The notes beneath the pieces were generated by a model that made no database searches, had not been told where the DNA came from, and saw only the letters and a list, made by a program, of their open reading frames with translations. DNA of 64,000 nucleotides from an uncultured Chloroflexia bacterium (lineage in GTDB: Bacteria > Chloroflexota > Dehalococcoidia > UBA2979). Shown piece after piece: positions 1 to 37,356 of this stretch. Made by a program: the position numbers and the translations under genes. The stretch is taken from NCBI GenBank assembly GCA_963728205.1, contig CAVSIV010000001.1, forward strand, positions 1,152,001-1,216,000, written 5' to 3'. Each line of letters starts with the position of its first letter. Position 1 is the stretch's first letter.

Positions 1-202
1 GCCAGAGCACGAGCACCGCCGTGGCGACGGTCGCGAGCGCGGCGGCCACGAGCCGCGCGCCGAGCGGCAGCGGCAGGTTGCTCACCGCGCTGTAGGCGAG
101 CGTCAGGCCGACCGCGGCGGAGAGGAGCTGCCGCATCGTGAGGCCGGCGAAGGCGCGGTCGGCGACGTTGAGATGGGTGGGGATCTCGTGGCGGCCGCTC
201 AC
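1..202 (-). CDS. PrgI/VirB3-like conjugation membrane protein, partial (runs off window)
   Basis: Manual translation VSGRHEIPTHLNVADRAFAGLTMRQLL followed by TM segments, matching the PrgI-type 'IP.....D+...GLT.RQ' pattern; GTG start overlaps the stop of the pilin gene. Confidence 0.7.
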   Translation of the reverse strand, partial: MSGRHEIPTHLNVADRAFAGLTMRQLLSAAVGLTLAYSAVSNLPLPLGARLVAAALATVATAVLVLW

Positions 203-429
203 GTGATCGCCCCCTTCACGACGCCGGCGATCGCGCGCGCGAGCAGCACGATCACGAGTCCGGTGAGCGCGTTGACGATCGCGGACTTCGCCGACTCCGC
301 CTGGCGCGGCGAGCCCGACGCCGCCATGTACATGAAGGCGCCCCACATCACGAAGAAGGCCGAGACCGCCACCGCGATGCCGGTGCCGATGTCGATCAGG
401 TTCGTGAAGAGCGTGTTGATCTGGTCCAT
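199..429 (-). CDS. TrbC/VirB2-like conjugative pilin
   Basis: 76 aa, two hydrophobic helices joined by 'G..YM.ASG.P....AK..I.NAL.GL'; T4SS context. Confidence 0.75.
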   Translation of the reverse strand: MDQINTLFTNLIDIGTGIAVAVSAFFVMWGAFMYMAASGSPRQAESAKSAIVNALTGLVIVLLARAIAGVVKGAIT

Positions 430-441
430 CTGGTTCTCCGA

Positions 442-966
442 TCAGCGGCCGCCGGATGCGGCCACGGCAGGTTGCTGTCCCAGCAGCTGGAAGTCGGCGA
501 CGAGCCAGCGCCCATCCGTGCGAACGAGCCCGAGGCTCACGTCCTGCGTCACTTGCTGGTGGACGAGCGCGCCGGACGCCGGGTCGCGCCACTCCCGGTC
601 CTGGGTGGAGCGCACGGTTGCCGCCGCGTTGCCTCCCGACAGCGCGGTGACCGTGACCGACTCGACGCGCGAGGAGCTCGTGCGCTCGGCGGCGATGGCG
701 GCGGGATCGACCGCGGCTTTCGCGACGGCGTGCTGGAGGTCGCCGGTGCTCAGGTCCGCGAGCCGCGCCGCGTACGCGCCGGCGTCCCGGAAGTCGAAGT
801 TGCCGTACGCGGCGACGAAGGAGCGGGCCGCGGCCTCGACGGCTGCACGGTCGTCCCGGCGCGCGGCGAGCCCCGACGCGCCGCTCCAGCCCGACGCGGC
901 CGCGATCGCGAGCAGCACCGCCGCGATCGCGAGCAGCGCGTACGCGGCGCCTCGCCCGCGGATCAC
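442..966 (-). CDS. VirB8/NTF2-like bitopic conjugation protein
   Basis: N-terminal TM, 'AARSFVAAYGNFDF' and C-terminal 'LVRTDGRWLV' NTF2-like strands; GTGA overlap at 963-966; fused to the SLT in the ORF track by an indel. Confidence 0.55.
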   Translation of the reverse strand: MIRGRGAAYALLAIAAVLLAIAAASGWSGASGLAARRDDRAAVEAAARSFVAAYGNFDFRDAGAYAARLADLSTGDLQHAVAKAAVDPAAIAAERTSSSRVESVTVTALSGGNAAATVRSTQDREWRDPASGALVHQQVTQDVSLGLVRTDGRWLVADFQLLGQQPAVAASGGR

Positions 967-1561
967 GGGGCCACCGCCACGGGCGACGGCCGGGAGGACC
1001 CGGCCACGGGCGTCGGCGTCGCGCCGGCGCCCGCGTACAGGCTCGCGCGTGCCAGCACGGTGCGCGACGTACGACCACGAGTGGTTGTAGGCGTAGACCG
1101 CGCCGGGGAGGTCGGTCGCCGCGCCCGCCGCGGCGAGCAGCCGCGCCATCGCCGGGATCGCGTCGCGGAAGTCGTACGGATCGCCGCCCCGTCCAAACAG
1201 CGCCCACGTCGACGGCAGGAACTGCCCGTAGCCGACGGCGCCTGCCGACGAGGTCGCCATGTTGGCGCCAAAGCCGCTCTCCACCGAGGCAATCGCCGCG
1301 AGCACCGGCCACGGGACGCCGGTCTCTGCGCTCGCGTCTTGCATCACCGCGAGCTGCGCGGACGGGATCGCGGGCGCCGACGTCGCGTGCGCGCCCGGGA
1401 TGCCGGGGATCAGCGACGCGACGAACGCGGCGATCGCGATCACGACCAGCAGCACGGGGACGAGCACGACCCCGGCCAGGGCGCCGGACGAGGCGGAGCC
1501 CCGCGCGCGGCAGGTCCCCGAGGACAGATGCGGCGACGAGCGTGGCCTGCAGCATCGTCAC
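963..1561 (-). CDS. lytic transglycosylase (SLT, VirB1-like), frameshifted
   Basis: 'VLAAIASVESGF', 'GAVGYGQFLPSTW', 'AVYAYNH' SLT motifs after a TM anchor. Confidence 0.85.
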
Positions 1562-2732
1562 GCTCCCCCCGCGCCCGCGGCGCCTGCGCCGCCGGAGCCC
1601 AGCCCACCGACGAAGCGGCTGAGGACCACGAGCGAGACGACGTTGCGCGAGGCCCGCGTGGCGCACCTGCCCGTGCAGGAGCGTGGGCACCTTGAGCGTC
1701 AGCCACGCGACGGCCATCCCCAGCATCAGCGTGAGCAGCGCGTTCGAGACGCTGCCGGGCGTGAGCTCGACCATCAGCGCGGCGCCGAGGCGCAGCACGG
1801 CCACCTGCACCGCCTGCTGGAAGACCGTGATCCCGAAGAGGTGCGCCCACCAGCGCGTCCACCCCTGGGTCTGGGGCAGCACCCAGAGCAGCACCATCAC
1901 GGGCGACAGCACGATCAGCACGTCCAGCAGCGCGAGCCGCATCAGCATCTGGAACACGAGCAGCAGCGCGACCACGACGTAGGCGATCGCGACGATCACG
2001 AGCGCGATCCCCTGCTGCTCGACGCCGGCCTGGTCGTAGCCGGGCAGCCCGACCTGCCCGACGCCGCCGGCGAAGGCGTTGTTCATGTCGATGAGGACGT
2101 GCGCGAGCTCGAGCGTGAGGTTGACGGCGAGCGCGGCGAGCAGCACGCGCGGCAGCAGCTCCATCACGCCGTGGTAGGGAGCGCGGATGTGGTCCTTCAC
2201 GACGACGTTGAAGCCGCCCCACATCACGACCAGCGCGAGGCCGGCGTTCGCGAGGGCGCGGCCGAAGTCCCAGAGCGTGCGGACGGTGCTGCTCTCGTAG
2301 GTGCCCGCGGCCGGCGTCCGCGTGACGAAGTTGAGCGACGAGCCGCCGAGGCCCATCGCCCAGTCGATGAAGCCGCGCATCGCCCCGCAGCAGCGCGCGC
2401 CCCAGCGCCGTGACGACGCCGTCGAGGATATCGCCCGCCCACTGGCGAGGATCGAGTCCGCTCAGCAGGCCGCCCGGGTTGGGCATGTTCGGCCCGGCGG
2501 CAGGGGCGGTGTTCACCCGGCTGGCGGAGAAGGGGGTCGCCGTGGAAGCCGCTGCCGGCGTCGGCGCCGCGTTCGCGGCGACGCTCGGCCGCGTCGGAGC
2601 GACCAGGGGCGCGCCCGCGCCGATGAGGGCAGCGAGCGCGTCCGGTGCCTGCTGGGCGCGGGCGGGTGCGACGAACACGAACCAGCAGACGAGGGCGGCG
2701 CAGACGCCGAGCAGCGGACCTCGCACGACCAA
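1558..2732 (-). CDS. VirB6/TrbL-like polytopic T4SS protein, frameshifted near 2390
   Basis: Alternate frame gives multiple TMs: 'LLPRVLLAALAVN', 'QMLMRLALLDVLIVLSPVMVLLWVLPQTQGWTRWW', 'LTLKVPTLL'. Confidence 0.75.
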
Positions 2733-2789
2733 GTCCCTTCTGCACCGCGTCCGCCTCGCCGATGGGCGGGGATTCGCGGTGCGGGGACT

Positions 2790-2877
2790 AGCGTCGCGTC
2801 ATGAGGTCCAACTCAAGTCCAAGATCGCACCCAGATCGCACCAATCCATACCAAGATCAGTCCAAGATCGCACCAAC
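2790..2877 (-). promoter_or_regulatory. 11-bp-period direct-repeat promoter, copy 1, upstream of the T4SS operon
   Basis: Minus strand TTGGTGCGATCTGGGTGCGATCTTGGACTTGAGTTGGACCT (2844-2804), 8 nt, then GACGCT; aligns without gaps to copies at 20844 and 28064. Confidence 0.75.
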
Positions 2878-3124
2878 GCGCTAGCTTCCGCGGGAGGCGC
2901 CTCACGGCACCAGGGCGGCGCGGATTCTCGATCCGTGTACGTTCGGCCGGACAAAGCAGGCGCAACGCCGCCACCCACCTGCTCGCCTCCGCTTTTGCGG
3001 CGGACGGCATCGCGCGTGTCCAGCGGTCAGCGCTTGGTGGGACAGCGCTCGCTCGCCCGACATGCCGGATACTTACTCAATTGTGAGGTGATCAGTCAGC
3101 GTCAGGACCGGTTGGCTGCTAGGA

Positions 3125-4654
3125 TTAGATGATCCCCTCTTCGCGTGCCTTGGACATGGCCGCCACCTTCCCGGAAACGCCGAGCTTGTCGTACAGCCGA
3201 TATGCATGCGTCTGAACCGTCCTCCATCCAACGCCGAGGAGATCAGCGGTTTCCCGGTAGCTCAACCCCTCCGACAGATGCGTCAACACCTCCACCTCAC
3301 GAGGCGTCAGGTTGCGGCCATGGCCGGCTGCCCGCTCTAACGCCACGGAGCGTACTGCGGCATAGCTGTGCGGCAGGGGGTCGATGGCGCGAGCGGATAG
3401 CGCCTCGCGCCCGGCGCGACGCAGCAAGATCGCCTCGCGCTCGGAGCGCGCCGTCCCCGCGAGCGCCAGTATCTCGGATAGTTGAACGCGGGCGAGGGCA
3501 GCCTCCAGATTGTACCCGGCAGCATCTGACCAACGAATCGACCGCCGGAGCGAGGTAACCCCACCCCGCCGATCTCCGTTCCGAATCTGGAGCAGGCCGC
3601 GGACTCGATCAGCTGAAACCGGCCACTCCATCGTTGATCGCACGTGGCGCGGCAATGCAGACCGAAGCCACTGCTCCCAGCGAACCGCTTCCGCCTGGGT
3701 ACCCGCGATAGCGACCGCCTCGGCACCAGCGAGGGCCGAAGGGAGCGACATGAGCGTCAGCGCAGGGGGAGGGTGTGGGCAATCGGCTACTGACTCTTGG
3801 CGATAACCGTCAATGAGGGCGCTGAATGACTCAGCGTTGGTCGCGTCGCGGTTTGCACCCGCCTCAACTGAGCGCAAGTGCCCAACCAGTTCTCGCGCCT
3901 CCTCCCAGTGAGCACCCACCACCGCCCGTCGAATCGCAAGCAATAACTCCCGCCAGCGAGTCAGGTAGTTACGGGACGCGAGCCGAGCGTGGCCCCCCGA
4001 TGGGCAGTCATTGATGCTCTGGAGAGCGGAGTCAAATGCGCGAGCGTCGTCCAGACGCCACTGACTGCCTGACTGTTCTGCCTGGACTCGCAGGGACTGT
4101 GCCCACGGACGGGCCCGCAACTGATCCCCTCGCGCCACCAACCATGGGACGAACCAGCTCTTCAAACCGCTCGCGAGCCACTCGTACCCGCTCCGCTCCG
4201 CTAGTCGAATGGGTTCGACGAACAGGTCGAGGTCAGCATCCTCAAGCAAGAGGCACGCAACGGTCGCAGAGTAGATCTTGTACTCGACGTCGGCGCGAGC
4301 GCTGCTAGCCGGGCATAGGAGTGCTGCGGCCCCCTGCAACGATTGGCGAGCGCCCCCGGGATCCCCGCTAATTGCCTCGTACGCCGCCTTCACGCACAGC
4401 AGGTGCATCACCGTATCGGGGACATCGCCAGCCATCCCGAGGCCAAAATCGAGTTGCGCCACCGCTTCCGGGAAGCGACCCTCGGCGTCCAGTCGGACAG
4501 CGGCGAGCATCGCGAGTTCCGCAACCTGGTCCGGTCGCTGCGCGCCGTAGGCTTCCGCGAGCGCCTGCTCGTAGATAGCCCGCCACTCCGCGCTCGACAG
4601 AGCGCCGGCACGGCGAAACTGCTCCCGAACTCGATCGACCAAGCTGTGCATCAT
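3125..4654 (-). CDS. large LuxR-family regulator (helical/TPR-like N-terminus, C-terminal HTH)
   Basis: C-terminal 'LTPREVEVLTHLSEGLSYRETADLLGVGWRTVQTHAYRLYDKLGV'. Confidence 0.85.
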   Translation of the reverse strand: MMHSLVDRVREQFRRAGALSSAEWRAIYEQALAEAYGAQRPDQVAELAMLAAVRLDAEGRFPEAVAQLDFGLGMAGDVPDTVMHLLCVKAAYEAISGDPGGARQSLQGAAALLCPASSARADVEYKIYSATVACLLLEDADLDLFVEPIRLAERSGYEWLASGLKSWFVPWLVARGDQLRARPWAQSLRVQAEQSGSQWRLDDARAFDSALQSINDCPSGGHARLASRNYLTRWRELLLAIRRAVVGAHWEEARELVGHLRSVEAGANRDATNAESFSALIDGYRQESVADCPHPPPALTLMSLPSALAGAEAVAIAGTQAEAVRWEQWLRSALPRHVRSTMEWPVSADRVRGLLQIRNGDRRGGVTSLRRSIRWSDAAGYNLEAALARVQLSEILALAGTARSEREAILLRRAGREALSARAIDPLPHSYAAVRSVALERAAGHGRNLTPREVEVLTHLSEGLSYRETADLLGVGWRTVQTHAYRLYDKLGVSGKVAAMSKAREEGII

Positions 4655-4767
4655 CGCAGACCACCTGACTTACCCGGGATCGTAAGTCAATCGACTGACG
4701 ACGGGGGGCACGTACTTCGCCATGCTGCCAGATACAGCGCAGCGGGCGGTAGCGAGAGGGTGAAGCC

Positions 4768-5181
4768 ATGGTCGTCCCAGAGTGTCTGCTATTGACGGAG
4801 TTCATCACAGACGTCCTTCGGGAGGACGAGGCGCTGCGAGCGCGGTTGCGGGCAATGCTGACAGCGGGAGCCTCATCCGGCGAGTTGACTGAGGCGCTCG
4901 CCGGGCACGCGGATGAGGGAACGGCCGAGACTATCCGGCACGAGTACTACGAGCTCCCCGAGTCGACCGTGGCGACGATCCTGACGGCATGGATGGCTGC
5001 TGAGAACGCGGGGCGGCCCTTCGTCCTCCGGTCGTCACCACCAGCCGAGCCGATTGCGGCGGCGCGCAAGCGCCGCGTCGAGATCTCGATCGCGATGGAC
5101 GAGGATGGCGTGGTAGTGTCCCTGTCCCACGTCTGGGATCGGCACGCCGATTGCTATAAACCGGTGATGACAGCGGCGTGA
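4768..5181 (+). CDS. hypothetical protein
   Basis: 137-aa ORF with globular composition and an upstream GAGAGG. Confidence 0.55.
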   Translation: MVVPECLLLTEFITDVLREDEALRARLRAMLTAGASSGELTEALAGHADEGTAETIRHEYYELPESTVATILTAWMAAENAGRPFVLRSSPPAEPIAAARKRRVEISIAMDEDGVVVSLSHVWDRHADCYKPVMTAA

Positions 5182-5254
5182 TTTGAGTCTAATGCCGCCG
5201 CAGCAGTTCTGGTGGCAGGACCTTGGAAGGGGCCGGTCAGGATGCGAGTGATCG

Positions 5255-5551
5255 ATGCCCACCGAGCCTTCGCGCGTAGTGCTACCAAGGATCACGATGC
5301 GCCGCGCAACTATCCTGCGGGACATCGCTGCCGGCTTGACGCTCCGCGAGATCGCGGAGACACAATCCCTCTCCTTCAATGGCGTGCGTAGCCACGTGGA
5401 GGATCTCAAGAACATCACGGGGTGCACATCTGTCCGGCAGCTAGGTCAGTGGTGGCGTGCGCACCGAGCTGAATGGATAAGACTAATGAACATGTGCGCC
5501 CGCGATTCGGAGCACGATCGTTTGATTCGAAGGAGGAGGCGGCTGCGTTAA
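5255..5551 (+). CDS. small LuxR-type HTH protein
   Basis: 'ILRDIAAGLTLREIAETQSLSFNGVRSHVEDLKNITG'. Confidence 0.7.
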   Translation: MPTEPSRVVLPRITMRRATILRDIAAGLTLREIAETQSLSFNGVRSHVEDLKNITGCTSVRQLGQWWRAHRAEWIRLMNMCARDSEHDRLIRRRRRLR

Positions 5552-5879
5552 GTGACAACGACCGGTCCAATCATCCGCGACTATCCGCCAACTGATCACG
5601 ACTGAAGCAATTGATGATGACCTTCAACCCCTCGGCTTGGTTCGCTGCATGACTTGCACGTCTCGGAGAACCCTACGCCCGCGCGTCGCTTACACCAGCT
5701 TCCGGACCGCGACCTAGTGCGACGTCCCGGTGAGCGGACAGTTGAACTCTGCGATCCGGATCTGTAACGCAAGCGCGGACAGCACGGGGGCGCGGCGTCT
5801 CGCTCCGGATCCCCCGATTGGCGCAAGCGAACAGCGCCCGCCTTTCGTCGACGGTGAGGAGGGCCACGACACCGTCCCT

Positions 5880-6519
5880 GTACTCTGTCTTCCTTCGAGG
5901 GACCGCAATCTGAGGGTGGTTACTTATGGTGATCACGGCGTCGTTGACGGCGATGGCGGTGCGAGACGAGCTCGTAAAGAGGTCCTCGGCCTGGGTCACG
6001 GTGTGCTCATGCGCATGCCGAAGTCGTCGCGGATGAGCAGCTCGGGCGAGAGGTGGCCACGCAGCCTGGGCTGCCAGCTGTGTGGTCGGCGCGGCCACCG
6101 GCGAGATCGACGAGCAGCGCCTGGGCTGGTGAAGAGCCGACCCTAACGGCAGGCCGCCACGCCGAGGGCCTGCGCGAAGAAGGTCTTCCCGACGCCGGTG
6201 GGCCCGCAAACCAGCACGCTGGGGTGCTCTTCGAGGTAGCGGCGAGCGGCGAGTTGCCAGAGTTCGGCCTTCGGGATCTCCGGGTTGTAGCTGAAGTCGA
6301 AGTCGCGCAGGTCGTACGCCTCGTCGAAGCGCGCCCGGCGGATGCGGCTCGCCATCCCGGCGGCCTCGCGGCGCCTGAGCTCGTCGTCGAGCAGCAACTC
6401 GAGGAACTCCACCGGGTCGAGGCCGCGCGCGCGTCTCCTCCACCCGCGCGGTGTTTCGCCTCCGGCATCCCGGATAGCTGCGAGCCGCAGGCGTGGCGCC
6501 AGCGCCCGACACCGCTCAT
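5880..6519 (-). pseudogene. istB: IS21-family helper ATPase IstB, frameshifted
   Basis: 'EFLELLLDDELRRRE...RARF...LRDFDFSYNP', Walker A 'GPTGVGKT', 'ELLIRDDFG'. Confidence 0.8.
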
Positions 6520-7097
6520 CGCGCACCTGCCGTCGCGAAGGCGGCCGGTCCGCGGAGGTAGGCATCGGCGGCGTCCGGACCTGGAGGCTGGTCGGGCGGC
6601 TCCGCGAGCCCGCGCTCGAGCAGGCCCCGCACCGTGCGGAGCCGCCCGTCGCCCGGCATCCAGCGCCGGCCGGTAAGCCTGCTCCAGCCCCTCCTCGCCG
6701 TCCCAACGATCAGGCGCAGCACCTACCTGCACCTCGCGGAGGTGGTGCAGGGCGTGCGTCTCGAGCACCGCGCCGACCAGCTCCCGGTCGCGGTCTCGAC
6801 CACACGGGCGCGACGCAGGCAGGCCCGCGGGGTGGCTCAGGTCTTCTATACTCGCCGCCGTCTGCACAGGGGCCCGATCTTCTTCAAACGCGACAACGCG
6901 ACGGCCGATTGAACCGAAGCAACTCGACCTTCTCCAGACTCAGAGCGAACTACCGAACGCCGCGGCGCTGGCCGCTGCGGAAGGCCGGCTGACCCACCGA
7001 TGCCCCCCGAACCTGCTCCGCCACGTCCCCCTGCAAATCGGGACGCGGCTCTCGACGAAGACCAGATCGTGCGTGAAGAACCGGCGATGGACCTCAC
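6516..7097 (-). pseudogene. istA: IS21-family transposase IstA, degraded C-terminal remnant
   Basis: Directly upstream of istB with ATGA overlap; 'RTVRGLLERGL...YLRGPAAF' tail typical of IstA. Confidence 0.5.
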
Positions 7098-7171
7098 CTT
7101 TCGCGCGAGCCCGACCCACGCCCGACTCTGGCTAGCAAACCGTCTTCGGGCCCGCGCCGCCTGTCGCGCGG

Positions 7172-8110
7172 CTATCTAAAAGTCCGTCCTGACCGCTCAC
7201 CAGGGCGGTGAAGCATGGCGGACCGCCCGAGCAACAGAAGCGCGAGCGCAACGACGCCCAGCAGCGCTCCTCCCGCCAAGCTCGCGCGGCCTTCGTCTAC
7301 TAGGCCAGCATTCCCTGTGGGTGCGGGAGTGGGAGCGGGTACGGAAGTCACGGTGAACTCGACAGGCGCTCCGACGGGAGCGGCATCCGGCTGCGCGGCG
7401 CGCCTCACAGACAGTTCGAAGTGGGCACCGGAGTCGCAGGTGTCAGCAAGCGACGCACGAGGAATCTCATACTTCAAGGCACCATCGGGCGGAACGGCAA
7501 GCCCCGCCGAGATGAACTGGCCGGCGTCGGGTTGGTCGATTCGGCGAAGGAAGAAGCGCACCTCCAGCCCGGACGGAAAGCCACGAGTAGTCGCTGCGAA
7601 TGACGCGGTACACGGTGCCTGCATTGGGCTAAGGAACAGTTCGGCAATAGGAGTGCAGGATCCCTGTGGTTCGATCTTGCGGTCCGCTAGAAGAGAACAA
7701 ACCGACGGCGGGTAGAGTTGATCGCTCGGCACTACCTGGTACCCAGCGAATGCAATCGTACGGCCTGGCTGAAAGGCCGGATGGAACGGGCGAAGTACGC
7801 CGCGAAAGTCGACGAATGTCAAACTGGCGCCAGCCTCGTGACACACATCCGGTTGGCTTGCCTGGCCGACTTGGATCTCACTGTAACGAGTCAAATCTAT
7901 CTCTGTGCAAAATGTGTCATTAGCGAAGATGAATACGCCTCCTCCAAGAACGGACCCGGCGTCGCCACTTACAAGCGGGAACCCAACCTCTGCCGGTGGA
8001 GGGAACGTGATCGTCGCCCGTTGCTCGGCAGGGGCTTGACCCACAGCCGCAGTAGTGGTGAGAACCAAACAAACTGTGACTAAGGCAATCGCAAGTCCGC
8101 CACGCAGCAC
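7172..8110 (-). CDS. secreted protein with C-terminal sorting-signal-like tail
   Basis: Signal peptide; 'PAPTGNAG', TM helix and basic tail at the C-terminus. Confidence 0.65.
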   Translation of the reverse strand: MLRGGLAIALVTVCLVLTTTAAVGQAPAEQRATITFPPPAEVGFPLVSGDAGSVLGGGVFIFANDTFCTEIDLTRYSEIQVGQASQPDVCHEAGASLTFVDFRGVLRPFHPAFQPGRTIAFAGYQVVPSDQLYPPSVCSLLADRKIEPQGSCTPIAELFLSPMQAPCTASFAATTRGFPSGLEVRFFLRRIDQPDAGQFISAGLAVPPDGALKYEIPRASLADTCDSGAHFELSVRRAAQPDAAPVGAPVEFTVTSVPAPTPAPTGNAGLVDEGRASLAGGALLGVVALALLLLGRSAMLHRPGERSGRTFR

Positions 8111-8194
8111 TGGTTCCCCGCTCTCACCTTCACCCGCTGAAAGAGCAGACGCGGGCTAGCAAGACGCCCCCGCCCGCCTCCGAAGAAATTGGCT

Positions 8195-17532: not shown

Positions 17533-17534
17533 CG

Positions 17535-22221: not shown

Positions 22222-22222
22222 C

Positions 22223-29291: not shown

Positions 29292-29301
29292 GGAAGGGAC
29301 G

Positions 29302-30291
29302 ATGACACAGACACAGGAACTGGTGCTCACCAGCCTCGGTGAGCTCGCACGGGTCCGCGACCGCTTCGCCGACGCGCGGGTGCCCGACGCGATGGCGCTC
29401 GTGCCCGTGGTCGCGGCCAGCGGTCCGGAGGAGATCGCCGCGCTCGCGCGCTCCGCGCGGCGCGCGCTCGATGAACTCGAGGCGCTCGTCGCGAGCGACC
29501 GCCAACGTCGGCGCGAGGCCGAGCAGTGCCTCGCGCGCTGGCAGAGGCTGCGCGACGAGAGCGCGCGCGTCCGCGGCATCGCGGAGGAGATGCGCGCCGC
29601 GGCCGAGCGGGCCACCGGTCTCGGCACGGCTGCGCTGGACGACGCAGCCCGCCGGGCCGCGGAGGGCGTCGCCGCCACGGCGGGTCGCCTCGCGACGCAG
29701 GCCGAGGTGCACGCCGAGACGCTCGCGAGCGAGGCCGACCGCCTCGCCGAGCGCGACGACGTGAGCAGGCTCCTCGCGGAGGAGCGGACGAAGGAGGTGG
29801 AGACGGAGCTGCGTGAGCGGCTGGCGCTGGCCGGGACATACCTGGACGGCGGCAGATACAACGAGGCCCGGCGACTGCTGGATTCTCTTGGCGGACAACT
29901 CAGCAGCGTGCCGGACCTCGAACGAACGTTCGAAACGCTACGACGGCGCGACGAGGCCGTCAAGGTTCGGACCGCCGAGCTGGCGCTGCGCGAGGCGCGG
30001 CGCTGCCACCGGCGCGAACCCGCGCGCGCGCTCGACCTCATCGAGCCGCTCGCGCTCGACGAGCTGCCCGACGAACTCGCCCGTCACCTCTACGGGCTCT
30101 GGCTCACCGCCTGCCGGCGGCTGGGCCTGATCGCGGCGGTTCACTACCGCGCCGGCTTCGGCCGGGGCGCGGTGCTGGTTCCCGCGTCCGACGGCCGCTG
30201 GGAGGTCGTCTCCGCCGTCGGGCTGCGCGGCTGGCAGCGCGGCGGACGCTTCGCGCCCCAGGCATTGCGGGGCGCACGCCCGCTCGCCTGA
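29302..30291 (+). CDS. coiled-coil hypothetical protein
   Basis: AAGGAAGG RBS; long E/R/A-rich helices. Confidence 0.7.
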   Translation: MTQTQELVLTSLGELARVRDRFADARVPDAMALVPVVAASGPEEIAALARSARRALDELEALVASDRQRRREAEQCLARWQRLRDESARVRGIAEEMRAAAERATGLGTAALDDAARRAAEGVAATAGRLATQAEVHAETLASEADRLAERDDVSRLLAEERTKEVETELRERLALAGTYLDGGRYNEARRLLDSLGGQLSSVPDLERTFETLRRRDEAVKVRTAELALREARRCHRREPARALDLIEPLALDELPDELARHLYGLWLTACRRLGLIAAVHYRAGFGRGAVLVPASDGRWEVVSAVGLRGWQRGGRFAPQALRGARPLA

Positions 30292-30307
30292 ACCCATCGA
30301 GACATCC

Positions 30308-30419
30308 GCGCAGACCTGTCCTCTTCGGGGCCGCCTTCGGGCGGCCCCGACATCGTCGCGCCCGAAATCGGGGGTGACGCGCGCCCGCATCCGGGCGCGC
30401 CGAGGCAAGCAGGTTGCGC
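30308..30419 (+). ncRNA. predicted four-way-junction structure (RNA leader or ssDNA signal)
   Basis: Outer stem encloses three hairpins, one with a cUUCGg loop. Confidence 0.45.
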
Positions 30420-30436
30420 AGTGAACGGAGAAAGAC

Positions 30437-30754
30437 ATGTTCGACGAGAAGAGTCGCTTCGGAGCGGCGGCGGTGGGCGTGTGGGAGCGCTCGCACCGCG
30501 AGTACGCGGGCTGGCCGCCCGCCGAACAGGCGGTCGCACGGGCCGCCATTGAGTCGCTGTCCGCGCAGCTGGCGGAGTGCGCCGATGAGCACGGGCTGCA
30601 CGAGCAGTACTGGGCCTTCGGGGATCCGCTGGGACAGGTGCTGCAGGCGCAGCTCCCGCCGGGGTTCGACCCCGAGCGGCTGCTCACGCTCGAGGAGGCG
30701 TGCCTCTGGCTGCGCCTGCTCGAGCTGCGGGGGACGCCGCCCTGTTCGACGTAG
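30437..30754 (+). CDS. hypothetical protein
   Basis: 105 aa, GGAG RBS. Confidence 0.65.
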   Translation: MFDEKSRFGAAAVGVWERSHREYAGWPPAEQAVARAAIESLSAQLAECADEHGLHEQYWAFGDPLGQVLQAQLPPGFDPERLLTLEEACLWLRLLELRGTPPCST

Positions 30755-31801
30755 CCGCAATCCGCGCCCAGCACCCGATCGCCGAGACGGTGCGCGGCGC
30801 CGGCATCGAGCTCACGCGGAGCGGGCGGCGCCTGCTGGGGCGCTGCCCGTTCCACGCCGACCGCGATCCGAGCTTCGTCGTCTACGCGGACACGAGCAGC
30901 TGGTTCTGCTTCGGCTGCAACGCCGGCGGCGACGTCATCGACTTCGTCGGCCGGCTGCGGGGCACGCCGTTTCGGGAGACGGCGGAGCGGCTCGCGACGA
31001 GCGCGCCCGCGCCGCCCGCGAACGTTGCGCCCCTCCGTCCGCGCCGAGCGCCGCCGGCGCTCGACGCGTGCGCGCTCGCGGTCGTCGAAGCCGCGACGGC
31101 GTACTACGAGCTGGCGCCGGCCGACCGTGCCGCGTGGTCGTACCTCCGCGCTCGCGGAATCGACGTGGCGACCGCGCGCCGGCACCGGCTCGGCTACGCA
31201 CGGGGCGGGCTCGCACGCCATCTCCACGACCGCGGCCTGAGCCAGGACGTGGCGCGGCAGCTCGGGCTGCTCTCCCGCGACCGCGACGCCCTGGCCGGAC
31301 GGCTCGTGGTGCCGAACCTCGACCGCCGCGGACGGGCGCGCTGGCTGACCGCTCGCGCGCTCGGCGCGGGCGAGCCGCGCTACCTCAACCTGCGCGCGCC
31401 GGTGCCGCTGCTCGGCCTGGCGCGCACGCGCGGCGTGGCGCCGCGCGGTCGTCGTCACCGAGGGACCGTTCGACTGGCTCACGGCCAGCGGCTGGGGCCT
31501 CCACAGCCTGGCGCTCCTCGGGACGCACGTCTCGCTCGACGCGCTCGCGGCGCTCCGCTCCTTCCGGCGCGTCTACGTCGCGCTCGACGCCGACGAGGCC
31601 GGCCGCCAGGCGGCCGCGCGCATCGCGGGCGAGCTGGGCGAGCGGGCGGTGGTCGTGACGCTCCCACCCGGGGCGCACGACCTGAGCGAGCTCGGAACGC
31701 GGCGCGATGGCCGCGCGGCGTTTCTCCGCTCGCTCTACCGCGCACGCGCACGGAGGCAGGGATCGTGGTCGAGATCCGCGGGCAGCGCCCGCGCCGCCTG
31801 A
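30700..31801 (+). CDS. DnaG-like primase (CHC2 zinc finger plus TOPRIM), frameshifted near 31440
   Basis: 'CPFHADRDPSF...WFCFGCNAGGDVIDF', 'YLRARGI', 'YLN', 'TEGPFD', 'LDADEAG'. Confidence 0.88.
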
Positions 31802-32427
31802 GCCGCGCCGCCCTCGAGGCGCTGCGGCAGCCGCTCGCGCCGGAGCTCGTCTCCGAGCGCACCACCGACGACGGCGAGGTCCTCCGCTACCTGGAGGGCT
31901 GGCGCGTCATCGAGCAGGCCAACGCGATCTTCGGCCACGACCGCTGGGGCGTGGAGCTCGTGGGCGAGGTCGCCTACCGCGCCGTCCCCGCGGCCGGCCG
32001 TCCGCGCGCCGAGGCCGCGGGCCTCTACACGGCGACGGTCCGCGTCACGGTCGACGGCGCGTTGCCGCACGCAGACGTCGGCGTCGGCATCGTCGCCGAG
32101 CCGACGCCGGAGGCGCACGCGACGGCCTACAAGGCGGCCGTCACCGATGCCCTCAAGCGGGCGTTCCGCCACTTTGGTCCCCAGTTCGGTGGGGACCTGG
32201 CACGGGGCGCCGAAGGCACGCCGGCGGCAGACGACCCGCCCGACGAGCTGCGCCGCCGCGTGCTCGACATCGCGGCGCGCGCCGGCTCCGACGAGGCGCG
32301 CACGCGCGAGTGGATCTCGCAGCACTACGGCTGCCCGCTCGAGGAACTCGACGGGCGGCCGCTCGCACACGCCGTGGCCGCGCTCTCCCGCGGCCTCGAG
32401 CGCCGCAACGGCCACCACGCGGCCTGA
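31765..32427 (+). CDS. Rad52/Rad22 (Sak-like) single-strand annealing protein
   Basis: 'YLEGWRVIEQANAIFGHDRW', 'KAAVTDALKRAFRHFG'. Confidence 0.85.
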   Translation: MVEIRGQRPRRLSRAALEALRQPLAPELVSERTTDDGEVLRYLEGWRVIEQANAIFGHDRWGVELVGEVAYRAVPAAGRPRAEAAGLYTATVRVTVDGALPHADVGVGIVAEPTPEAHATAYKAAVTDALKRAFRHFGPQFGGDLARGAEGTPAADDPPDELRRRVLDIAARAGSDEARTREWISQHYGCPLEELDGRPLAHAVAALSRGLERRNGHHAA

Positions 32428-32646
32428 ATGTTCGACACCGAGCACACGCGGAGGCGGGTCATCACCACGCGCTCCGCTCGCTACCGGGTGGCGTGGATCC
32501 CGCTCGCCCGCTCGCCCCTGCCCGGCTTCCGCGCCTGCGCCGTCCAGGCGGTGCCCGTCGAGGAGCCGCCCACGCGCGCCGTCCGGCTCGTCCTCTTCGA
32601 GCGGCTCACGCCGCCCGACGAGGGCGACCGGCCCGGCGCCGCATGA
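32428..32646 (+). CDS. small hypothetical protein
   Basis: 72 aa abutting the previous stop codon. Confidence 0.5.
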   Translation: MFDTEHTRRRVITTRSARYRVAWIPLARSPLPGFRACAVQAVPVEEPPTRAVRLVLFERLTPPDEGDRPGAA

Positions 32647-32680
32647 CGACCCACCGCCCACATCGAAAAGGAGTACCGAC

Positions 32681-33082
32681 ATGCCAGAGTTCGTTCGGCG
32701 CGCCCGGCGCCGCACTGAGATCAGCTACACGCGGGAGTTCCGCTACCGCGACAGCGAGTACGCGGGCTTCGGCTTCCCCTGCGACGCGGCGGGCAACGTC
32801 GACCGCGACGCGCTGCCCGCGCCTGCTCGCTCGAACCTCGACCGCTGCCTCGCGGGCGAGCTGGACGTCGTCGACCTCGGCGTGCGCCGCGACGAGCACC
32901 GCTGGACCGAGCCCGCCGTGCTCCGCTGCGACTGCGGGGCCGACGTCGTGCTCGGCCACTTCACGAACGCCTGCCCGGTCTGCCCGCGCGACTACGACTC
33001 CGCCGGCTCCCTCCTCGCGCCAGGCGACCAGTGGGGCGAGGAGACCGGCGAGGCCCTCTCCGAGATCCTGCGGACGCCGTGA
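32681..33082 (+). CDS. hypothetical protein with C-terminal Zn-ribbon-like motif
   Basis: AAGGAG RBS; 'RCDCG...NACPVC...Y...G..LAP..QWGEETGE'. Confidence 0.7.
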   Translation: MPEFVRRARRRTEISYTREFRYRDSEYAGFGFPCDAAGNVDRDALPAPARSNLDRCLAGELDVVDLGVRRDEHRWTEPAVLRCDCGADVVLGHFTNACPVCPRDYDSAGSLLAPGDQWGEETGEALSEILRTP

Positions 33083-34033
33083 CGCCTGAGGCGAAGACGG
33101 TCACGCGCGGAAGCCGCGTGCCTCCCGGCCGGCGTCCGCGCGCGAATGCGCGCCGTGACGCCTACGCGGCGGTCACCGACCGCATCATCGCCGCGCTCGA
33201 CCGCGGCACCGTCCCGTGGCGCCAGCCCTGGCGCGCACGCGGGCACCGCAACGCGTTCTCCGGTCACGCCTACCGGGGCATCAACCTGCTGATCCTCGGG
33301 CTCACCGCGCTCGAGCGCGGCTTCGACGACCCGCGCTGGCTGACATACCGGCAGGCCGAGGGCCGCGGCGGGCATGTGCGCCGCGGCGAGCGCGGGACGC
33401 AGGTCGTGCTCTGGCGCTGGCTCGAACGCGACGACCCGGACGCGGCCGACGGCGTGCGGCGGTACCCGCTGCTCCGCCTCTTCACCGTCTTCAACGCTGC
33501 TGCCCAGTGCGACGGCTTCGCGCTGCCGCCGATGGACGGCGAGCCGTTCGACCCGATCGAGCGCGCCGAGGCGATCGTCGCCGGCTACGCGGACGGACCG
33601 CGCATCCTGCACGACGCCGACTGCGCCTACTACGCCCCCGTCACCGACGAGGTGCACCTGCCGCCGCGCGGCGCCTTCCGCGACGCCGACAGCGAGTTCG
33701 CCACGCTCGCCTCACGAGCTCGGGCATAGCACGGGGCATCGTTCGCGCCTGCACCGCGAGGGGTTCGAGCGCGACCTCGCACCCTTCGGCTCCCCGAGCT
33801 ATTCGCGCGAGGAGCTCGTCGCCGAGTTCGCCGCCGCCTTCCTCTGCCATGAGGCGGGCGTCGACGCGTCCCGCCTCGAGCAGTCCGCCGCCTACATCGC
33901 GAGCTGGCTACGCGCGCTCCGCGACGACCGGCGCCTCGCCGTCGTCGCGGCCGCGCAGGCACAGCGCGCCGCCGATCACATCCTCGGGCAGCCGTCCGGG
34001 GACCAGCCACCAGCCATCCAGGACGAGAGCTGA
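33079..34033 (+). CDS. ardC: ArdC-family ssDNA-binding antirestriction protein, frameshifted near 33712
   Basis: 'VTDRIIAAL..GTVPWRQPW', 'YRGINLL', 'WLTYRQA', 'VFN', 'HELGHSTGH', 'YSREELVAE', 'YIASW'. Confidence 0.9.
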
Positions 34034-34112
34034 CACATCGAGCGCCGGCACGAAGCCCCGCGAGCGATCGCGGGGCGGCCTCGTCATGCCCGATCCACGA
34101 AAGGACCCAGCA

Positions 34113-34445
34113 ATGACCGACCAGATCACGCAGACCGAAACGCGCGTCATCGAGCGCGACATCACCGGTGCCGAGTGCGGCGCCTGCCCGCCGCGGGGGA
34201 GCAAGCACGTCGAGGTCGACGACCTCACGGCGCAGGAGCGCCGCATCGCGAAGCGCCTGCTCCACGGCGACAGCCCGCAGCAGATCGCACTTGCGCTGGC
34301 GATCAGCACGCGCACCGTCTACTGGCACCAGGAGAACGTGTATGTGAAGACGGGCGCGCGCAGCCTCGGCGAGTTCTTCGCCTGGGCCTACCGGCACCGC
34401 GAGTGCTGCGGCTTCGCGGCGCTCTTCGAGCGCTCGCCGCGATGA
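34113..34445 (+). CDS. small LuxR-type HTH protein
   Basis: 'LTAQERRIAKRLLHGDSPQQIALALAISTRTVYWHQENVYVKTG'. Confidence 0.8.
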   Translation: MTDQITQTETRVIERDITGAECGACPPRGSKHVEVDDLTAQERRIAKRLLHGDSPQQIALALAISTRTVYWHQENVYVKTGARSLGEFFAWAYRHRECCGFAALFERSPR

Positions 34446-34855
34446 CCGACGACCGCGGTCGGTGCGAGGTCTGCCCGACCCTCACTGATCCCTACGCGCT
34501 CCTGCAGGAGCTGCGGCACCACGCGCGGGAGCTCGTCGAGGCACCCACGCCGCAGTCGGTAAGCCGGCTGCGCGTCGCCCTCGACCACTTCGAGCCCGAC
34601 GCCGAGCTGCGGTCGTTCGTGCGCGCCGCGGCGCTCACAATCGTCGCCGGGCAGCAGTGCCACCCCGAGCTCGACGAGCTGCACGGCTACGTCTGCCCGT
34701 GTCGGCTCGGCGGGCCCGCGCACCAGCTCACGGCCGAGGAGATCTCGGATGCGCTGGCCGCGCTCGTCGCGTCGGGCCGCGCGCTCTACGACGGGCGCAA
34801 CCGCTTCCAGCTCGCCCCGCCGCCACACGGCGGGCCGACTGCCGCGGCCGCGTGA
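34442..34855 (+). CDS. hypothetical protein
   Basis: ATGA overlap with the upstream gene; Cys pairs. Confidence 0.55.
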   Translation: MTDDRGRCEVCPTLTDPYALLQELRHHARELVEAPTPQSVSRLRVALDHFEPDAELRSFVRAAALTIVAGQQCHPELDELHGYVCPCRLGGPAHQLTAEEISDALAALVASGRALYDGRNRFQLAPPPHGGPTAAAA

Positions 34856-34871
34856 TCGCGGACGACGGACG

Positions 34872-35590
34872 ATGGCACGCTTCCGTCACGTGATCCTGCC
34901 GGGCGGGTACGGCCTGCCGGGGCACCTCGCGTACACGCGCTGCGGGCACGTCGTCGCCTACGGGCGACAACCGAACGTCCCGCGCGGCGACCCGCGCTTC
35001 TGCCCGCGCTGCCGCGAGCTCGACGACGAGCCACAGCCGAGGGCGGCGGTCGATGCGGCTAGCCACCTGACCGAGGGTGACGCGGAGCGCCTCCAGCACC
35101 TTATCCGCATCAGCTGCGCCTGCTCGGCGAGCTGCGATCGCACTACGGCTGGCAGCCGTCGCCCGACGAGCGAAGACGGCTGCGCGGCCCGCGCGACATC
35201 TACGCGCTGCTGGCTCCGGAAATGGAACCCCTCGAGCAGGAGCAGTTGCGCGTGCTCCTCCTCAACACGCGTCACGACGTCGTCGACGTCGTCATGCTCT
35301 ACCAGGGCACCGTCAACGGGGCACCCGGTCGCATCGCCGAGGTGTTTCGCGACGCGATTCGGCGGAATGTCCCCGCGATCGCGCTGGTGCACCAGCACCC
35401 GTCCGGCGATGCCGAGCCCAGCGCCGACGACCGTGCCTTCACGCAGGAGGTGGCGCGGGCCGCCGAGCTGCTCGGGATCAGCCTGCTCGACCACGTCGTG
35501 ATTGGAGGCGGCTCCTTCGTGAGCCTCCGCGAGCGCGGCTACCTCGGCAGCGCAGCGCTGACCGCGCGTCCTTCGACCCCGACCAGATGA
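34872..35590 (+). CDS. radC: RadC/JAB-domain protein with N-terminal Cys-containing extension, frameshifted
   Basis: 'EQLRVLLLN', 'HQHPSGDAEPSADD', 'LLDHVVIG'. Confidence 0.88.
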
Positions 35591-35603
35591 AAGGAGAGTA
35601 TCG

Positions 35604-35870
35604 ATGACTGCTCGAAACGGTGACCGCAGCCAACGTCGAGGTGCACCGTGGACCGACGCGGAGGACGACCGGCTCCTGCGCATCGCCGACCTGCCCCCGC
35701 GACAGGTCGCGGAGCACATGCAGCGCAGCTGGCATGCGTGTCGCAGGCGGCTCGCCTACCTGCGCGCCAACGGCGCCCCACTAGCGGGGAACGCTCCCGC
35801 TCGCGGCGGGCCCGCGTCGATCGCGCACGCGGCAGGCGGCGGCGCGTCGACCCGCCAAGACCGTCCGTAG
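35604..35870 (+). CDS. small SANT/HTH-like protein
   Basis: 'WTDAEDDRL...VAEHMQRSWHACRRR'. Confidence 0.6.
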   Translation: MTARNGDRSQRRGAPWTDAEDDRLLRIADLPPRQVAEHMQRSWHACRRRLAYLRANGAPLAGNAPARGGPASIAHAAGGGASTRQDRP

Positions 35871-36152
35871 ACGCACCTGACGGGACTCGAAGCGGAACGG
35901 ACGTCCGCTCGAGTCCCGGCAGCGCGATCTGTCGCAAGAAGGAAGATCGTGCAAGTCGCAGGGCCGGCATTCGGCGCGGCGGTCGATGCGCACGCGGCCG
36001 AATCGCGAGCTCTGGTTCGTCGCTGTCCGGCAACCGCGACTCCGTGGGCGACAGTGGGGCAGCACCGCGCCGGCGCCCGCAAGTGTGACCGCGAGATACC
36101 GGTGTGCTAGCAGATTGTACCTAGCGTACGCTGAGTACGCAGGGAGGCCCTG

Positions 36153-36455
36153 ATGAGTGAACACGTGTCGGCCCGAGATGCCCGGAGCCGTTTCGCGGAA
36201 CTCACGGACCGCGTGAAGTACACGGGCGATCCGGTGATCATCGACAAGCAGGGACGCCCGTTCGTCGCCCTGATCCGCGCCGAGGACCTCGCAGTCCTCG
36301 AGCGCGCGCTCGTCGCGGAGCGGCAGGCGGCGTTCAGCCGCCTCGCCGCCGCGGCCAGCGAGCACGCGCCGGCGGCGCCCTCCGAGGAGGAGATCACCGA
36401 GGCCGTCCGCGTGACGCGCGAGGCGCTGCACCGCGAGCGCTATGGCGCTGCCTAG
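36153..36455 (+). CDS. Phd/YefM antitoxin
   Basis: 'VSARDARSRFAELTDRV...PVIIDKQGRP'. Confidence 0.88.
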   Translation: MSEHVSARDARSRFAELTDRVKYTGDPVIIDKQGRPFVALIRAEDLAVLERALVAERQAAFSRLAAAASEHAPAAPSEEEITEAVRVTREALHRERYGAA

Positions 36456-36933
36456 GCTGCGGGTCGCGCTCGACGCCAACGTCCTGATCGCCGGTACCGT
36501 CTGGCCCCGCTGGCCGCACGAAGTGCTGCGGGCGGCGCTCGGACGCCATTTCGACCTCGTGCTCCCGGAGCAGGTGGTCGAGGAGGCACGCCGGCACCTC
36601 ACCGCGCAGCAACAGGCGGCACTCTCCTATCTGCTCGACCACACGCCGCACGAGCGGTTGCCCATACCACCGCGGGCCGAGGTGCTCGCGGCGCGGGATC
36701 TCGTGCGGCACGACCCCGACGTGCCGATCGCGCTCGCCCTGCTCACCGCGGGCATCGACATCTTCGTGACGAACGACCGCGACTTCACCGACGCGGACGC
36801 CGTCGCCGGACGCTTCAGCCGCCAGGTGCGCGTGATGCTCCCGGCGGTGTTCCTCCGCGACGTGCTCGGCTGGAGCTCCGAGGCGCTCGAGGCGATCCGG
36901 TCACGCACGTGGGACGACCTTCGCGACCGGTAG
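36442..36933 (+). CDS. PIN-domain toxin
   Basis: 'ALDANVL', 'DPDVPI', 'FVTNDRDF'. Confidence 0.88.
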   Translation: MALPRLRVALDANVLIAGTVWPRWPHEVLRAALGRHFDLVLPEQVVEEARRHLTAQQQAALSYLLDHTPHERLPIPPRAEVLAARDLVRHDPDVPIALALLTAGIDIFVTNDRDFTDADAVAGRFSRQVRVMLPAVFLRDVLGWSSEALEAIRSRTWDDLRDR

Positions 36934-37020
36934 CGCCGTCTGACCGCTGCCGCGATCACGCCAGAGCCGCCCAGTCAGGGCGGCTCTGCGCATTCCCGTG
37001 CACATCCGAAGGAGAGACCG

Positions 37021-37252
37021 ATGGACCTCTACTGCCCGATCTGCGGTGAACCGTGGGCGCTCGACGCGCTGCACGATGTTCCCGACGCCGGCTTCGACGT
37101 GGCGCGCCGCCGCTTTCGCACCGAGGGCTGCGCGCTTCTCGGCTCGCCCCACAACCGCCCGATCGACGGCGCGACCGCCGCGAAGTCGGCGCTGCTCCCA
37201 CGAACTGCTCGGCGACGACCTCGACGACATCGCCAGCCTCATGGCCGAATGA
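37021..37252 (+). CDS. small CxxC protein, frameshifted
   Basis: 'MDLYCPICGEPW', 'ELLGDDLDDIASLM'. Confidence 0.6.
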
Positions 37253-37356
37253 GCATGGCGACCTCGCACATCCGCTGCGCGGGATTCGCGGCGGCCGTCG
37301 ACGCATATGCCGCGGACGAGCGCGAGCTGTGGTTCGTCTCGCTGCTCGGCAACGTT
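37249..37356 (+). pseudogene. 5' fragment of an ICE gene truncated by lower-GC cargo
   Basis: 'VDAYAADERELWFVSLLG' followed by an abrupt composition change. Confidence 0.4.

Follow-up and report, generated by a model that had tools for sequence, protein, structure and literature searches.

Genes resembling those of a type IV secretion system (T4SS), such as VirB4 and VirD4, have been reported beside cpa/tad pilus genes in monoderm bacteria, in LGI1 of Listeria (2010; PMC2834635) and in the linear tad plasmids p15.1.R1, pIMPLE-HL096PA1 and p09-9 of Cutibacterium acnes (PMC5696575). LGI1 is further equipped with serine recombinases, and with a dnaG primase that adjoins the coupling protein (PMC2834635). 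Here we describe a 64,000-nt stretch of DNA (the window) from an uncultured Chloroflexia bacterium (GTDB class Dehalococcoidia, UBA2979; assembly GCA_963728205.1, contig CAVSIV010000001.1, positions 1,152,001 to 1,216,000 of the forward strand) that shares this pairing. It holds the right 44 kb of an integrative and conjugative element (ICE) of about 54 kb (~54.1 kb; C1:1142108-1196251), in which T4SS genes, a secretin-less Tad/Flp locus, two SARP/BTAD proteins and a primase operon lie together. A first-pass annotation, made from the letters of the window, had named this same gene content, and Pfam and NCBIfam profiles found all of it; it had also called the system undescribed, which does not hold for the juxtaposition of Tad and Gram-positive T4SS genes, already present in LGI1 and the C. 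acnes plasmids. The likeness to these elements is by description only. They reside in Bacillota and Actinomycetota and use other integration sites, the role of their pilus in transfer is likewise putative, and the cited parts of their descriptions contain neither SARP regulators nor shared repeat promoters (PMC2834635; PMC5696575).

Conjugation in monoderms is usually attributed to surface adhesins, not to pili (PMC12102498). Element-encoded pili of the type IV family, separate from the T4SS, join mating cells in the IncI plasmids (R64, TP114) and in PAPI-1, where they are known as thin pili (PMC9045228; PMC12102498). Those pili are of type IVb (PilQ/R/S/V), belong to diderm Proteobacteria and work with secretins, whereas the pilus encoded here is of the Tad kind (type IVc), without a secretin and in a monoderm-type host. 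Its genes are those for Flp, TadE, TadB, TadC and CpaF and not the type IVb genes for PilQ, PilS, PilV and PilN; judged by its genes, the element is not a member of the IncI/PAPI-1 pilus family, which it would resemble in proposed function only.

We propose that the element represents a family, from the class Dehalococcoidia of the Chloroflexota, that is best explained as four co-inherited parts: a monoderm-type T4SS, a secretin-less Tad/Flp pilus, a second BTAD regulator and an operon of the leading-region type. On our preferred explanation, to which we give a probability of roughly 0.6, it is an ICE integrated at ssrA whose co-inherited parts would be switched on by a SARP and whose Tad pilus would aid mating. 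To our knowledge, DNA exchange in uncultured soil phyla such as Chloroflexota is almost unknown. In the titles and abstracts searched, subscription journals and supplements lying outside, there was no description of a Chloroflexota ICE, and neither a test of a Tad pilus in conjugation nor SARP/BTAD control of transfer genes. What appears to be new is the Chloroflexota family itself, the link through ssrA and a serine recombinase to the genomic islands of Dehalococcoides, and the SARP-type, element-specific arrays that tie together T4SS, pilus and leading region.

The source genome comprises 4.13 Mb in 6 contigs (72.5% GC, 89% complete). As open frames are abundant at high GC, open reading frames (ORFs) were chosen by third-position GC; 142 ORFs from 1-42 kb, and a further 68, were compared with Pfam, and 56 ICE proteins with NCBIfam. 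The first-pass annotation had placed the missing mobility genes to the left, and there they are: in the 20-kb stretch left of the window (L003), SmpB and the transfer-messenger RNA (tmRNA) gene (9767-10124) come first, followed on the minus strand by genes for a large serine recombinase, a Replic_Relax protein, a coupling protein, a primase and VirB4. The last 17 nt of the tmRNA (L003:10108-10124, CTCCCCCGTCTCCACCA) have just one other exact copy in the genome. These direct repeats bound the element, which upholds its designation as an ICE and moves its right end from 37356, as first annotated, to about 44251. The features that define the ends are:

L003:9940-11760, minus strand: large serine recombinase (Resolvase 8.8e-35, Recombinase 4.5e-14)
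44235..44251, plus strand: attR, which repeats the final 17 nt of the tmRNA; nowhere else in the genome does the tmRNA region have an exact 17-nt match
~44262-44292: terminator-like hairpin directly after attR

Beyond attR lie housekeeping genes (response regulator, hemerythrin, NDK, aminoacyl-tRNA synthetase). Integration at the 3' end of the tmRNA gene by the recombinase, which is CcrB-like (143.5 bits in NCBIfam, far under the equivalog cut-off), is the best explanation of this layout. The ssrA islands of Dehalococcoides have the same ssrA 3' end as target and a CcrB-like large serine recombinase (DsiB) beside attL on the reverse strand, and the direct-repeat primer used for them is the reverse complement of the repeat found here, except for the last two bases (PMC3146451). 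The likeness covers target, repeat and recombinase layout; those islands, which have a six-gene integration module, are 10-30 kb long, mobilisable and devoid of transfer genes (PMC3146451), whereas this element has a full T4SS. When relatives were searched for an empty site, none was found: the right flank (44252-47000) gave no DNA match above chance-level pieces in 25 of them, including 3 from the same genus, so that the insertion point is placed by the att repeat alone. The recombinase ORF extends ~185 nt into the tmRNA gene across attL (L003:9940-10124); its C-terminus would then change on excision, unless the overlap arose as an error of assembly. That the host belongs to the Chloroflexota, as first suggested, is borne out by the flanking SmpB, which shares 80% identity with the SmpB of a record titled Dehalococcoidia bacterium, and by the closest VirB4 relatives (74-82% identity), all from Dehalococcoidia or Chloroflexota metagenome-assembled genomes. 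More distant VirB4 proteins come from Anaerolineae (~57%), Ktedonobacterales (~50%) and Patescibacteria (~40%).

The upstream end of the T4SS operon opens the window:

1..2732, minus strand: T4SS operon, promoter-proximal (upstream) end, running on to the left of the window
across the left window edge, minus strand: small ORF of the same operon
199-429, minus strand: VirB2-like pilin (Pfam T4SS_pilin 1.6e-11)
442-1467, minus strand: lytic transglycosylase, VirB1-like (SLT 8.3e-7)
1440-2732, minus strand: TrbL/VirB6-like protein (TrbL_4 2.6e-11), with a frame change near 2380

With the genes in L003, the parts of the T4SS are best explained as a VirB2-like pilin, a VirB1-like hydrolase, TrbL/VirB6, a PrgI-like protein, VirB4, a primase, a coupling protein and the Replic_Relax protein. 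VirB4 matches P-loop_TraG at 5.1e-18 and scores 324.3 bits against the NCBIfam model NF045971 (the CD1110 family; cut-off 325). The coupling protein reaches 23.9 bits for TraG-D_C (cut-off 22) and is 29% identical to an annotated coupling protein, and a Toprim primase lies between it and VirB4 on the minus strand of L003. The pilin resembles the Mbov_0395 pilin-like family of the Mycoplasma ICE (35.3 bits, cut-off 40). Among the matches listed, the plasmid relatives of VirB4 come in the organism tally from Actinomycetota, Bacillota and other monoderms, with few exceptions such as Rhizobium (25 records). Because of the VirB4 model score, the pilin family and the hosts of these plasmids, we assign the T4SS by homology to the monoderm kind. 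The T4SS of Patescibacteria, related to MPF_FATA, has a VirB4 about 40% identical (Peregrinibacteria/Peribacteria) and a PF18895 pilin near virB4, and most such systems are reported without a relaxase (PMC12102498).

The Tad locus occupies 12 kb further to the right:

12021-24086, minus strand: Tad locus overall, from A24 peptidase to CpaB
12021..12497, minus strand: prepilin peptidase (A24, TadV-like; Peptidase_A24 6.6e-17), last gene of the Tad operon
14440-16026, minus strand: LysM protein (LysM 2.1e-14)
16046-16780, minus strand: PKD-like protein (PKD_4 1.9e-5, under its cut-off)
17535-17924, minus strand: TadG-like protein (Pfam Tad)
17970-18485, minus strand: TadE (Pfam TadE)
18455-18832, minus strand: TadE (Pfam TadE)
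18807-19007, minus strand: Flp pilin (Pfam Flp_Fap)
19019-19972, minus strand: TadC platform protein (T2SSF)
19954-20667, minus strand: TadB platform protein (T2SSF)
20952..22476, minus strand: CpaF/TadA ATPase (T2SSE in two ORFs, frame break at ~21503-21537)
22666-23295, minus strand: conserved ORF without a family, between cpaB and cpaF, kept in relatives
23199-24086, minus strand: CpaB/RcpC (RcpC 2.6e-12, SAF), kept in relatives

The set is complete for Flp prepilin, A24 peptidase, TadA/CpaF, TadB, TadC, TadE/F/G pseudopilins and CpaB, all above the Pfam cut-offs, and the LysM and PKD-like proteins have orthologues in all 9 elements compared, as conserved members of the Tad operon. No secretin (RcpA) was found in the 142 ORFs scanned or in the whole genome, as far as its 89% completeness reaches, while a control search found one in 6 diderm genomes; this absence is expected for a monoderm Tad system and is compatible with membership of the Tad family. 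Among the scanned ORFs there was also no ParA-like match, in Pfam or NCBIfam, that could stand for TadZ/CpaE. The C-terminal domain of CpaF was tried as a marker for comparison with plasmids and dropped, being ~50% identical to generic CpaF everywhere and thus non-discriminating.

Three repeat arrays, each of about 6 units of GCGATCTTGG in 11-nt phase, are shared by the modules:

2785..2880, minus strand: P_trbL array, repeats at 2800-2880 (~6 direct repeats in 11-nt phase), 8-nt spacer, hexamer GACGCT (2795-2790)
20840..20940, minus strand: P_tadB array between cpaF and tadB, followed by the hexamer GACCAT
28030..28118, plus strand: P_lead array, repeats at 28030-28105, 8-nt spacer, hexamer TAGCGT (28113-28118)

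The first-pass annotation had claimed one repeat promoter upstream of each of three modules. The copies are real and confined to this element: 4 of the 7 exact copies of the 10-mer in the 4.1-Mb genome lie within the three arrays, as do 5 of the 10 genome-wide matches to a double unit with at most 3 substitutions, the other 5 having 3 mismatches each. The Tad copy, though, lies inside its locus, at cpaF/tadB, and not upstream of all the Tad genes. Every related element has an array before trbL. Comparing each element's own P_trbL array by BLAST with that element revealed a matching array before the primase operon in 7, and one between cpaF and tadB in 6 of 9; the three elements with an inverted trbL operon, in which the T4SS operon is split, have one before the virB4 sub-operon (P_virB4). 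Automatic array finders (a strict lag-11 window; chained motifs) missed most arrays. Self-similarity peaks at lag 11 in 21 of 26 arrays, compared with 233 of 5000 random control windows. The units themselves are element-specific, being GGAACG, TGGACC, TTGGAG or GGGAGCGAT in other elements, and where one genome carries three elements, one T4SS module has an array that is matched in its own distant Tad/primase part but in neither of the others.

A proximal heptamer xGGAxCx stands 8 nt from a hexamer xAxxxT (invariant A2 and T6), without a gap in 11/11 P_trbL and 7/7 P_lead promoters. The P_trbL hexamer is CACGCT-like in all 11, with a gapless core alignment (invariant G...A..CT), and that of P_lead is TAGCGT-like in all 7, with invariant G16, T29, A30 and T34; in six P_tadB promoters it is, by eye, CAGGAT or GACCAT. 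In SARP-dependent promoters of Streptomyces (AfsR/afsS, ActII-ORF4 type) the repeats are 11 or 22 bp apart, the 3' repeat lies 8 bp from a weak -10, there is no -35, and the activator combines a winged helix with a BTAD domain (PMC10936776). The array geometry matches this published signature, so that a SARP, which the first-pass annotation had cast as master activator, would fit as the activator. The setting differs: the host is a Chloroflexota bacterium, the regulon would be one of conjugation and not antibiotic biosynthesis, there are ~6-8 repeats, and binding is putative.

Two candidate regulators are encoded at the Tad locus:

12487..13518, minus strand: SARP1, an OmpR-type winged helix with BTAD (BTAD 5.7e-15, 56.4 bits; Trans_reg_C 27.9 bits, cut-off 26.2)
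~24650-25425, plus strand: SARP2, a BTAD protein divergent from cpaB (BTAD 2.4e-10), start codon uncertain

The SARP1 gene stands at the end of the Tad operon, before that for the prepilin peptidase. A profile of 9 SARP1 orthologues matches EmbR (2FEZ) at E 4.5e-4; phmmer with the single SARP1 and SARP2 sequences found nothing among PDB sequences. Relatives align to residues ~327-577 of the long SARP2 ORF. The third array stands before an operon whose gene order is the same in relatives:

28119..28676, plus strand: long leader with a conserved 5' part, upstream of the leading-region operon
28677..36933, plus strand: leading-region-like operon
28677-29291, 29323-30291 and 30437-30754, plus strand: ORFs of unknown function
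30700-32427, plus strand: primase-Rad52 fusion
33031-34033, plus strand: ArdC, frame change at ~33700
34113-34445, plus strand: LuxR
35222-35590, plus strand: RadC
36153-36455, plus strand: Phd, forming a toxin-antitoxin pair with PIN
36442-36933, plus strand: PIN

For the leader alignment of 7 elements, 22 base pairs are predicted by RNAalifold, and compensatory changes occur in 5. Its 5' part (28119-28330; homologues in L005, L014, L018, L107, L109 and L111) is conserved although the proteins have diverged by ~40%, and may function as a regulatory RNA or, as single-stranded DNA, as a signal to the element's primase.

In relatives the Tad loci proved to be linked to T4SS genes, the point on which the first-pass annotation had made its proposal depend. 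We compared by tblastn 67 query proteins, all from the element except 3 from flanking housekeeping genes, with stretches around VirB4 homologues. The module order (T4SS, Tad with SARP1, SARP2, primase operon) is the same in 8 further elements from six genomes of at least 3 families (L004-7; L012-15; L016-19; L008-11 with L106-7; L108-110; L111-113; L114-117; L118-121), some of which occupy other integration sites and have no copy of this recombinase. One seeming T4SS-only copy is separated from its own Tad/primase part by a nest of insertion sequences (IS) of ~65 kb, and when another regulator was sought in T4SS-only stretches of relatives, only IS nests and unrelated genes were found. In a class sample of 301 evenly drawn genomes, TadB of at least 45% identity was found at 15 loci, spread over 10 genomes, every one of which is among the 13 with VirB4 of at least 54% identity; of the remaining 3, two are truncated by the end of a contig, while the third (L123-125) is truly without Tad within 30 kb. 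Where VirB4 and TadB share a contig they are 13-37 kb apart in 9 of 10 pairs and 75 kb apart, across an IS nest, in the tenth. Among 28 Chloroflexota-type loci with a TrbL match and sufficient DNA upstream, at least 8 have Tad-flank genes within 10 kb of VirB4; this is a minimum, as the locus in the window itself, where the distance is greater, would be missed. A Tad-less relative (VirB4 57%, a single case) has no array, SARP or primase operon in 30 kb upstream. No homologues of Tad, SARP or primase-operon genes were found within 10 kb at 32 loci of non-Chloroflexota type (L074-L105, mostly titled Patescibacteria; VirB4 at most 43%).

Mean protein distances of T4SS and Tad are correlated over 8 elements (Mantel r=0.985, 9999 permutations, p=1e-4). 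As the elements are kin, we read this as a sign of co-inheritance, not of function. The linkage extends to a second phylum. The 3 closest actinomycete plasmid matches to VirB4 (39-40%; Embleya sp. NBC_00896 and NBC_00888, Streptomyces sp. BHT-5-2) all have Tad genes 10-20 kb away: these Streptomycetaceae plasmids share homologous VirB4, PrgI-like, coupling and Replic_Relax proteins, followed by CpaB, TadA, TadB/C and TadE/G, and in one of them an annotated BTAD regulator comes directly after the Tad genes. They are linear plasmids and not ssrA-integrated ICEs, their clusters are, as far as our searches show, known from annotation alone, and no 11-nt arrays of the same kind were seen in them. 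On an Embleya plasmid (L135 30600-30700) three 14-nt-spaced GCAAGATCA repeats were noticed by eye upstream of the Tad cluster, and these may be the actinomycete counterpart of the arrays. A Pontibacillus plasmid (Bacillota; VirB4 35%) has no Tad genes within 20 kb.

We suggest that the Tad pilus helps mating because T4SS, Tad and early-entry genes share one kind of repeat promoter. In the mechanism we envisage, an activator of the SARP family would bind the 11-bp-phased arrays, which would replace the -35 element, and would switch on the T4SS, tadB-to-peptidase and leading-region promoters together. As SARP1 is encoded at the end of the Tad operon, positive feedback would follow. The retractile pilus would bring donor and recipient together for a wall-embedded T4SS, by analogy with the type IVb thin pili of IncI and PAPI-1, and the element-specific repeat unit would keep co-resident elements under separate control.

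Several points weigh against this proposal. A classical relaxase was not found, the sole candidate being the Replic_Relax (PF13814) protein at L003:12023-12799. Its structural model (pLDDT 80) combines a MarR-like winged helix with a restriction-endonuclease-like domain at Z 7-8.5, middling values in a range where the tool warns that chance matches are common; a wide structural search returned matches to restriction-endonuclease-like and MarR-like structures at Z 6-8.5, and Foldseek nothing at E<=0.001. With its invariant residues D133, E150, D152 and K164, the protein may be a candidate nicking enzyme, possibly an unconventional relaxase, in a fold that we take to recall the endonuclease-like MOB_C relaxases. 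Binding of the arrays by a SARP is inferred from their geometry only; they have ~6-8 units, where studied SARPs typically have two or three, and Pfam finds no winged helix or other DNA-binding domain in SARP2. In one relative genome, none of the three elements has an array preceding tadB, so that co-regulation of the pilus, as judged from arrays, is not universal. The distance correlation may partly reflect the shared descent of kindred elements. Finally, of all type IV filament systems the Tad loci are the ones that plasmids carry most frequently and that undergo the most horizontal transfer (PMC6668835), and TrbL, CpaF and ArdC are each broken into two frames.

These last breaks (~2380, ~21503-21537 and ~33700) bear on whether the element in this genome is decaying and no longer mobile, irrespective of how the family behaves in other genomes. 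Relatives have single-frame orthologues of all three, those of the window's T4SS genes being 52-88% identical. Decay would also account for the 9 kb of debris between modules, for a truncated transposase at the right end and for the recombinase ORF that crosses attL into the tmRNA gene. Adjoining housekeeping genes, however, have breaks about as densely spaced: the gene for a class I aminoacyl-tRNA synthetase (57484-61639) is split over two frames exactly at Pfam profile position 184/185, and a gene for a thiamine pyrophosphate (TPP) enzyme (53603-54391) is truncated. This, and a completeness of just 89% in spite of only 6 contigs, suggests indel errors throughout the assembly, and all other genes of the element are full length and its arrays intact. 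Since flanking genes are broken too, decay and assembly error are not separable here; for the three frameshifts assembly error is as likely as decay, and we regard an immobile remnant as possible but the less probable case.

The Tad locus might instead be adaptive cargo, an adhesion or biofilm island carried on an ICE to the benefit of the host and without part in DNA transfer. The frequent presence of Tad on plasmids, the view of the authors who described the C. acnes plasmids that the tad locus is mainly a colonisation factor (PMC5696575) and the three elements without an array before tadB would agree with this. It is nevertheless unlikely, as the true cargo of this element (3-12 kb and 37-44 kb) has no counterparts in relatives, whereas Tad co-diverges with the T4SS to ~40% protein divergence, persists with the same T4SS type in a second phylum and has an array in common with the T4SS promoter in 6 of 9 elements. 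Still less can be said for a machine serving DNA uptake, or other DNA handling, and not contact between donor and recipient. A Flp-pilus-dependent natural transformation in Micrococcus luteus is cited in PMC5696575, and the best NCBIfam match of CpaF (TIGR03819, 142.6 + 139.5 bits) is to a clade named "TadA family conjugal transfer-associated ATPase", a name that is NCBI annotation and does not rest on experiment; but no comEA or comEC was seen among the ICE ORFs scanned against Pfam, and co-regulation with a complete T4SS and the leading-region operon points to donor functions, which makes this alternative quite improbable. Accretion of separate ssrA elements (a T4SS ICE, a Tad island and a primase island), with the repeats as recombination scars or a mobile repeat, has a precedent in the tandem islands downstream of ssrA in Dehalococcoides (PMC3146451) and might appeal to the second-copy VirB4 fragments and IS debris in the island, but is least credible of all, given that the att repeat has only one further copy in the genome, that the module order recurs in 8 further elements, of which some are integrated elsewhere and do not have this recombinase, and that the arrays are fixed 8 nt from a -10-like hexamer at homologous promoters though their units differ.

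The family offers a defined and testable model, with one operator type at three or four promoters and a candidate activator, and with a linkage of pilus and T4SS that has outlasted ~40% protein divergence and is found again in another phylum. Genetically tractable hosts are available in the Streptomycetaceae with related plasmids for the study of a Tad pilus in Gram-positive-type conjugation, and the common ssrA site ties these elements to islands that spread organohalide-respiration genes. SARP-family activators are known as switches of antibiotic synthesis in actinomycetes. One might speculate, and this is tentative, that SARPs are the master switch of a conjugation regulon in monoderms of two phyla, with arrays as an address code that fires T4SS, Tad mating pilus and leading region together and keeps co-resident elements apart, and that ICEs targeting ssrA, such as this one, could supply the so far missing help by which the non-conjugative ssrA islands of Dehalococcoidia, with their reductive dehalogenase genes, are moved.

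The remainder of the element consists of two regions without counterparts in relatives, the first of which is specific to this genome, has a GC content of 62-67% against 72.5% for the genome, and is missing from a compact relative (L004-L007):

3125..11824, mixed strands: inserted debris between the T4SS promoter and the Tad locus, including a DUF433 ORF
3125-4654, minus strand: LuxR-type gene
6143-6706, minus strand: IstB fragment
9808-10123, minus strand: VirB4 fragments, a second copy of VirB4
11324-11824, plus strand: methyltransferase
37021..43932, mixed strands: variable cargo (Pfam/NCBIfam), GC ~60% at 38-40 kb
37508-38188: LuxR-type response-regulator-like gene
39566-40144: MauE/DoxX
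40513-41814: ORF of unknown function
42212-42622, minus strand: DUF6788
43012-43932: truncated IS701-like transposase at the right end

Rfam matched no families in window 1-46000. Further T4SS genes were noticed in passing. In this genome, the 18-kb contig C5 (L025, 2200-12400) carries the T4SS module a second time, heavily broken up, with VirB4 in 3 pieces and the coupling protein in 4; either this element has decayed or the contig is of low quality. One 3.67-Mb Dehalococcoidia chromosome (L029-L032, L054) has five copies of the T4SS module, and Tad-flank genes lie no more than 10 kb from two of them. About 40 of the 301 Dehalococcoidia-class genomes contain, often in multiple copies, a second VirB4 family that shares 36-39% identity with the one described here and probably represents another ICE family. 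In the housekeeping flank, a perfect hexanucleotide tandem repeat (GCTGCC-type, ~150 nt) lies at 49406-49603 near the start of a nitronate-monooxygenase-like ORF. Among public reads no RNA run was listed; one soil run contained a small share of the sampled words, as short pieces of low depth, some of them identical to the window at 38.8-42.1 kb.

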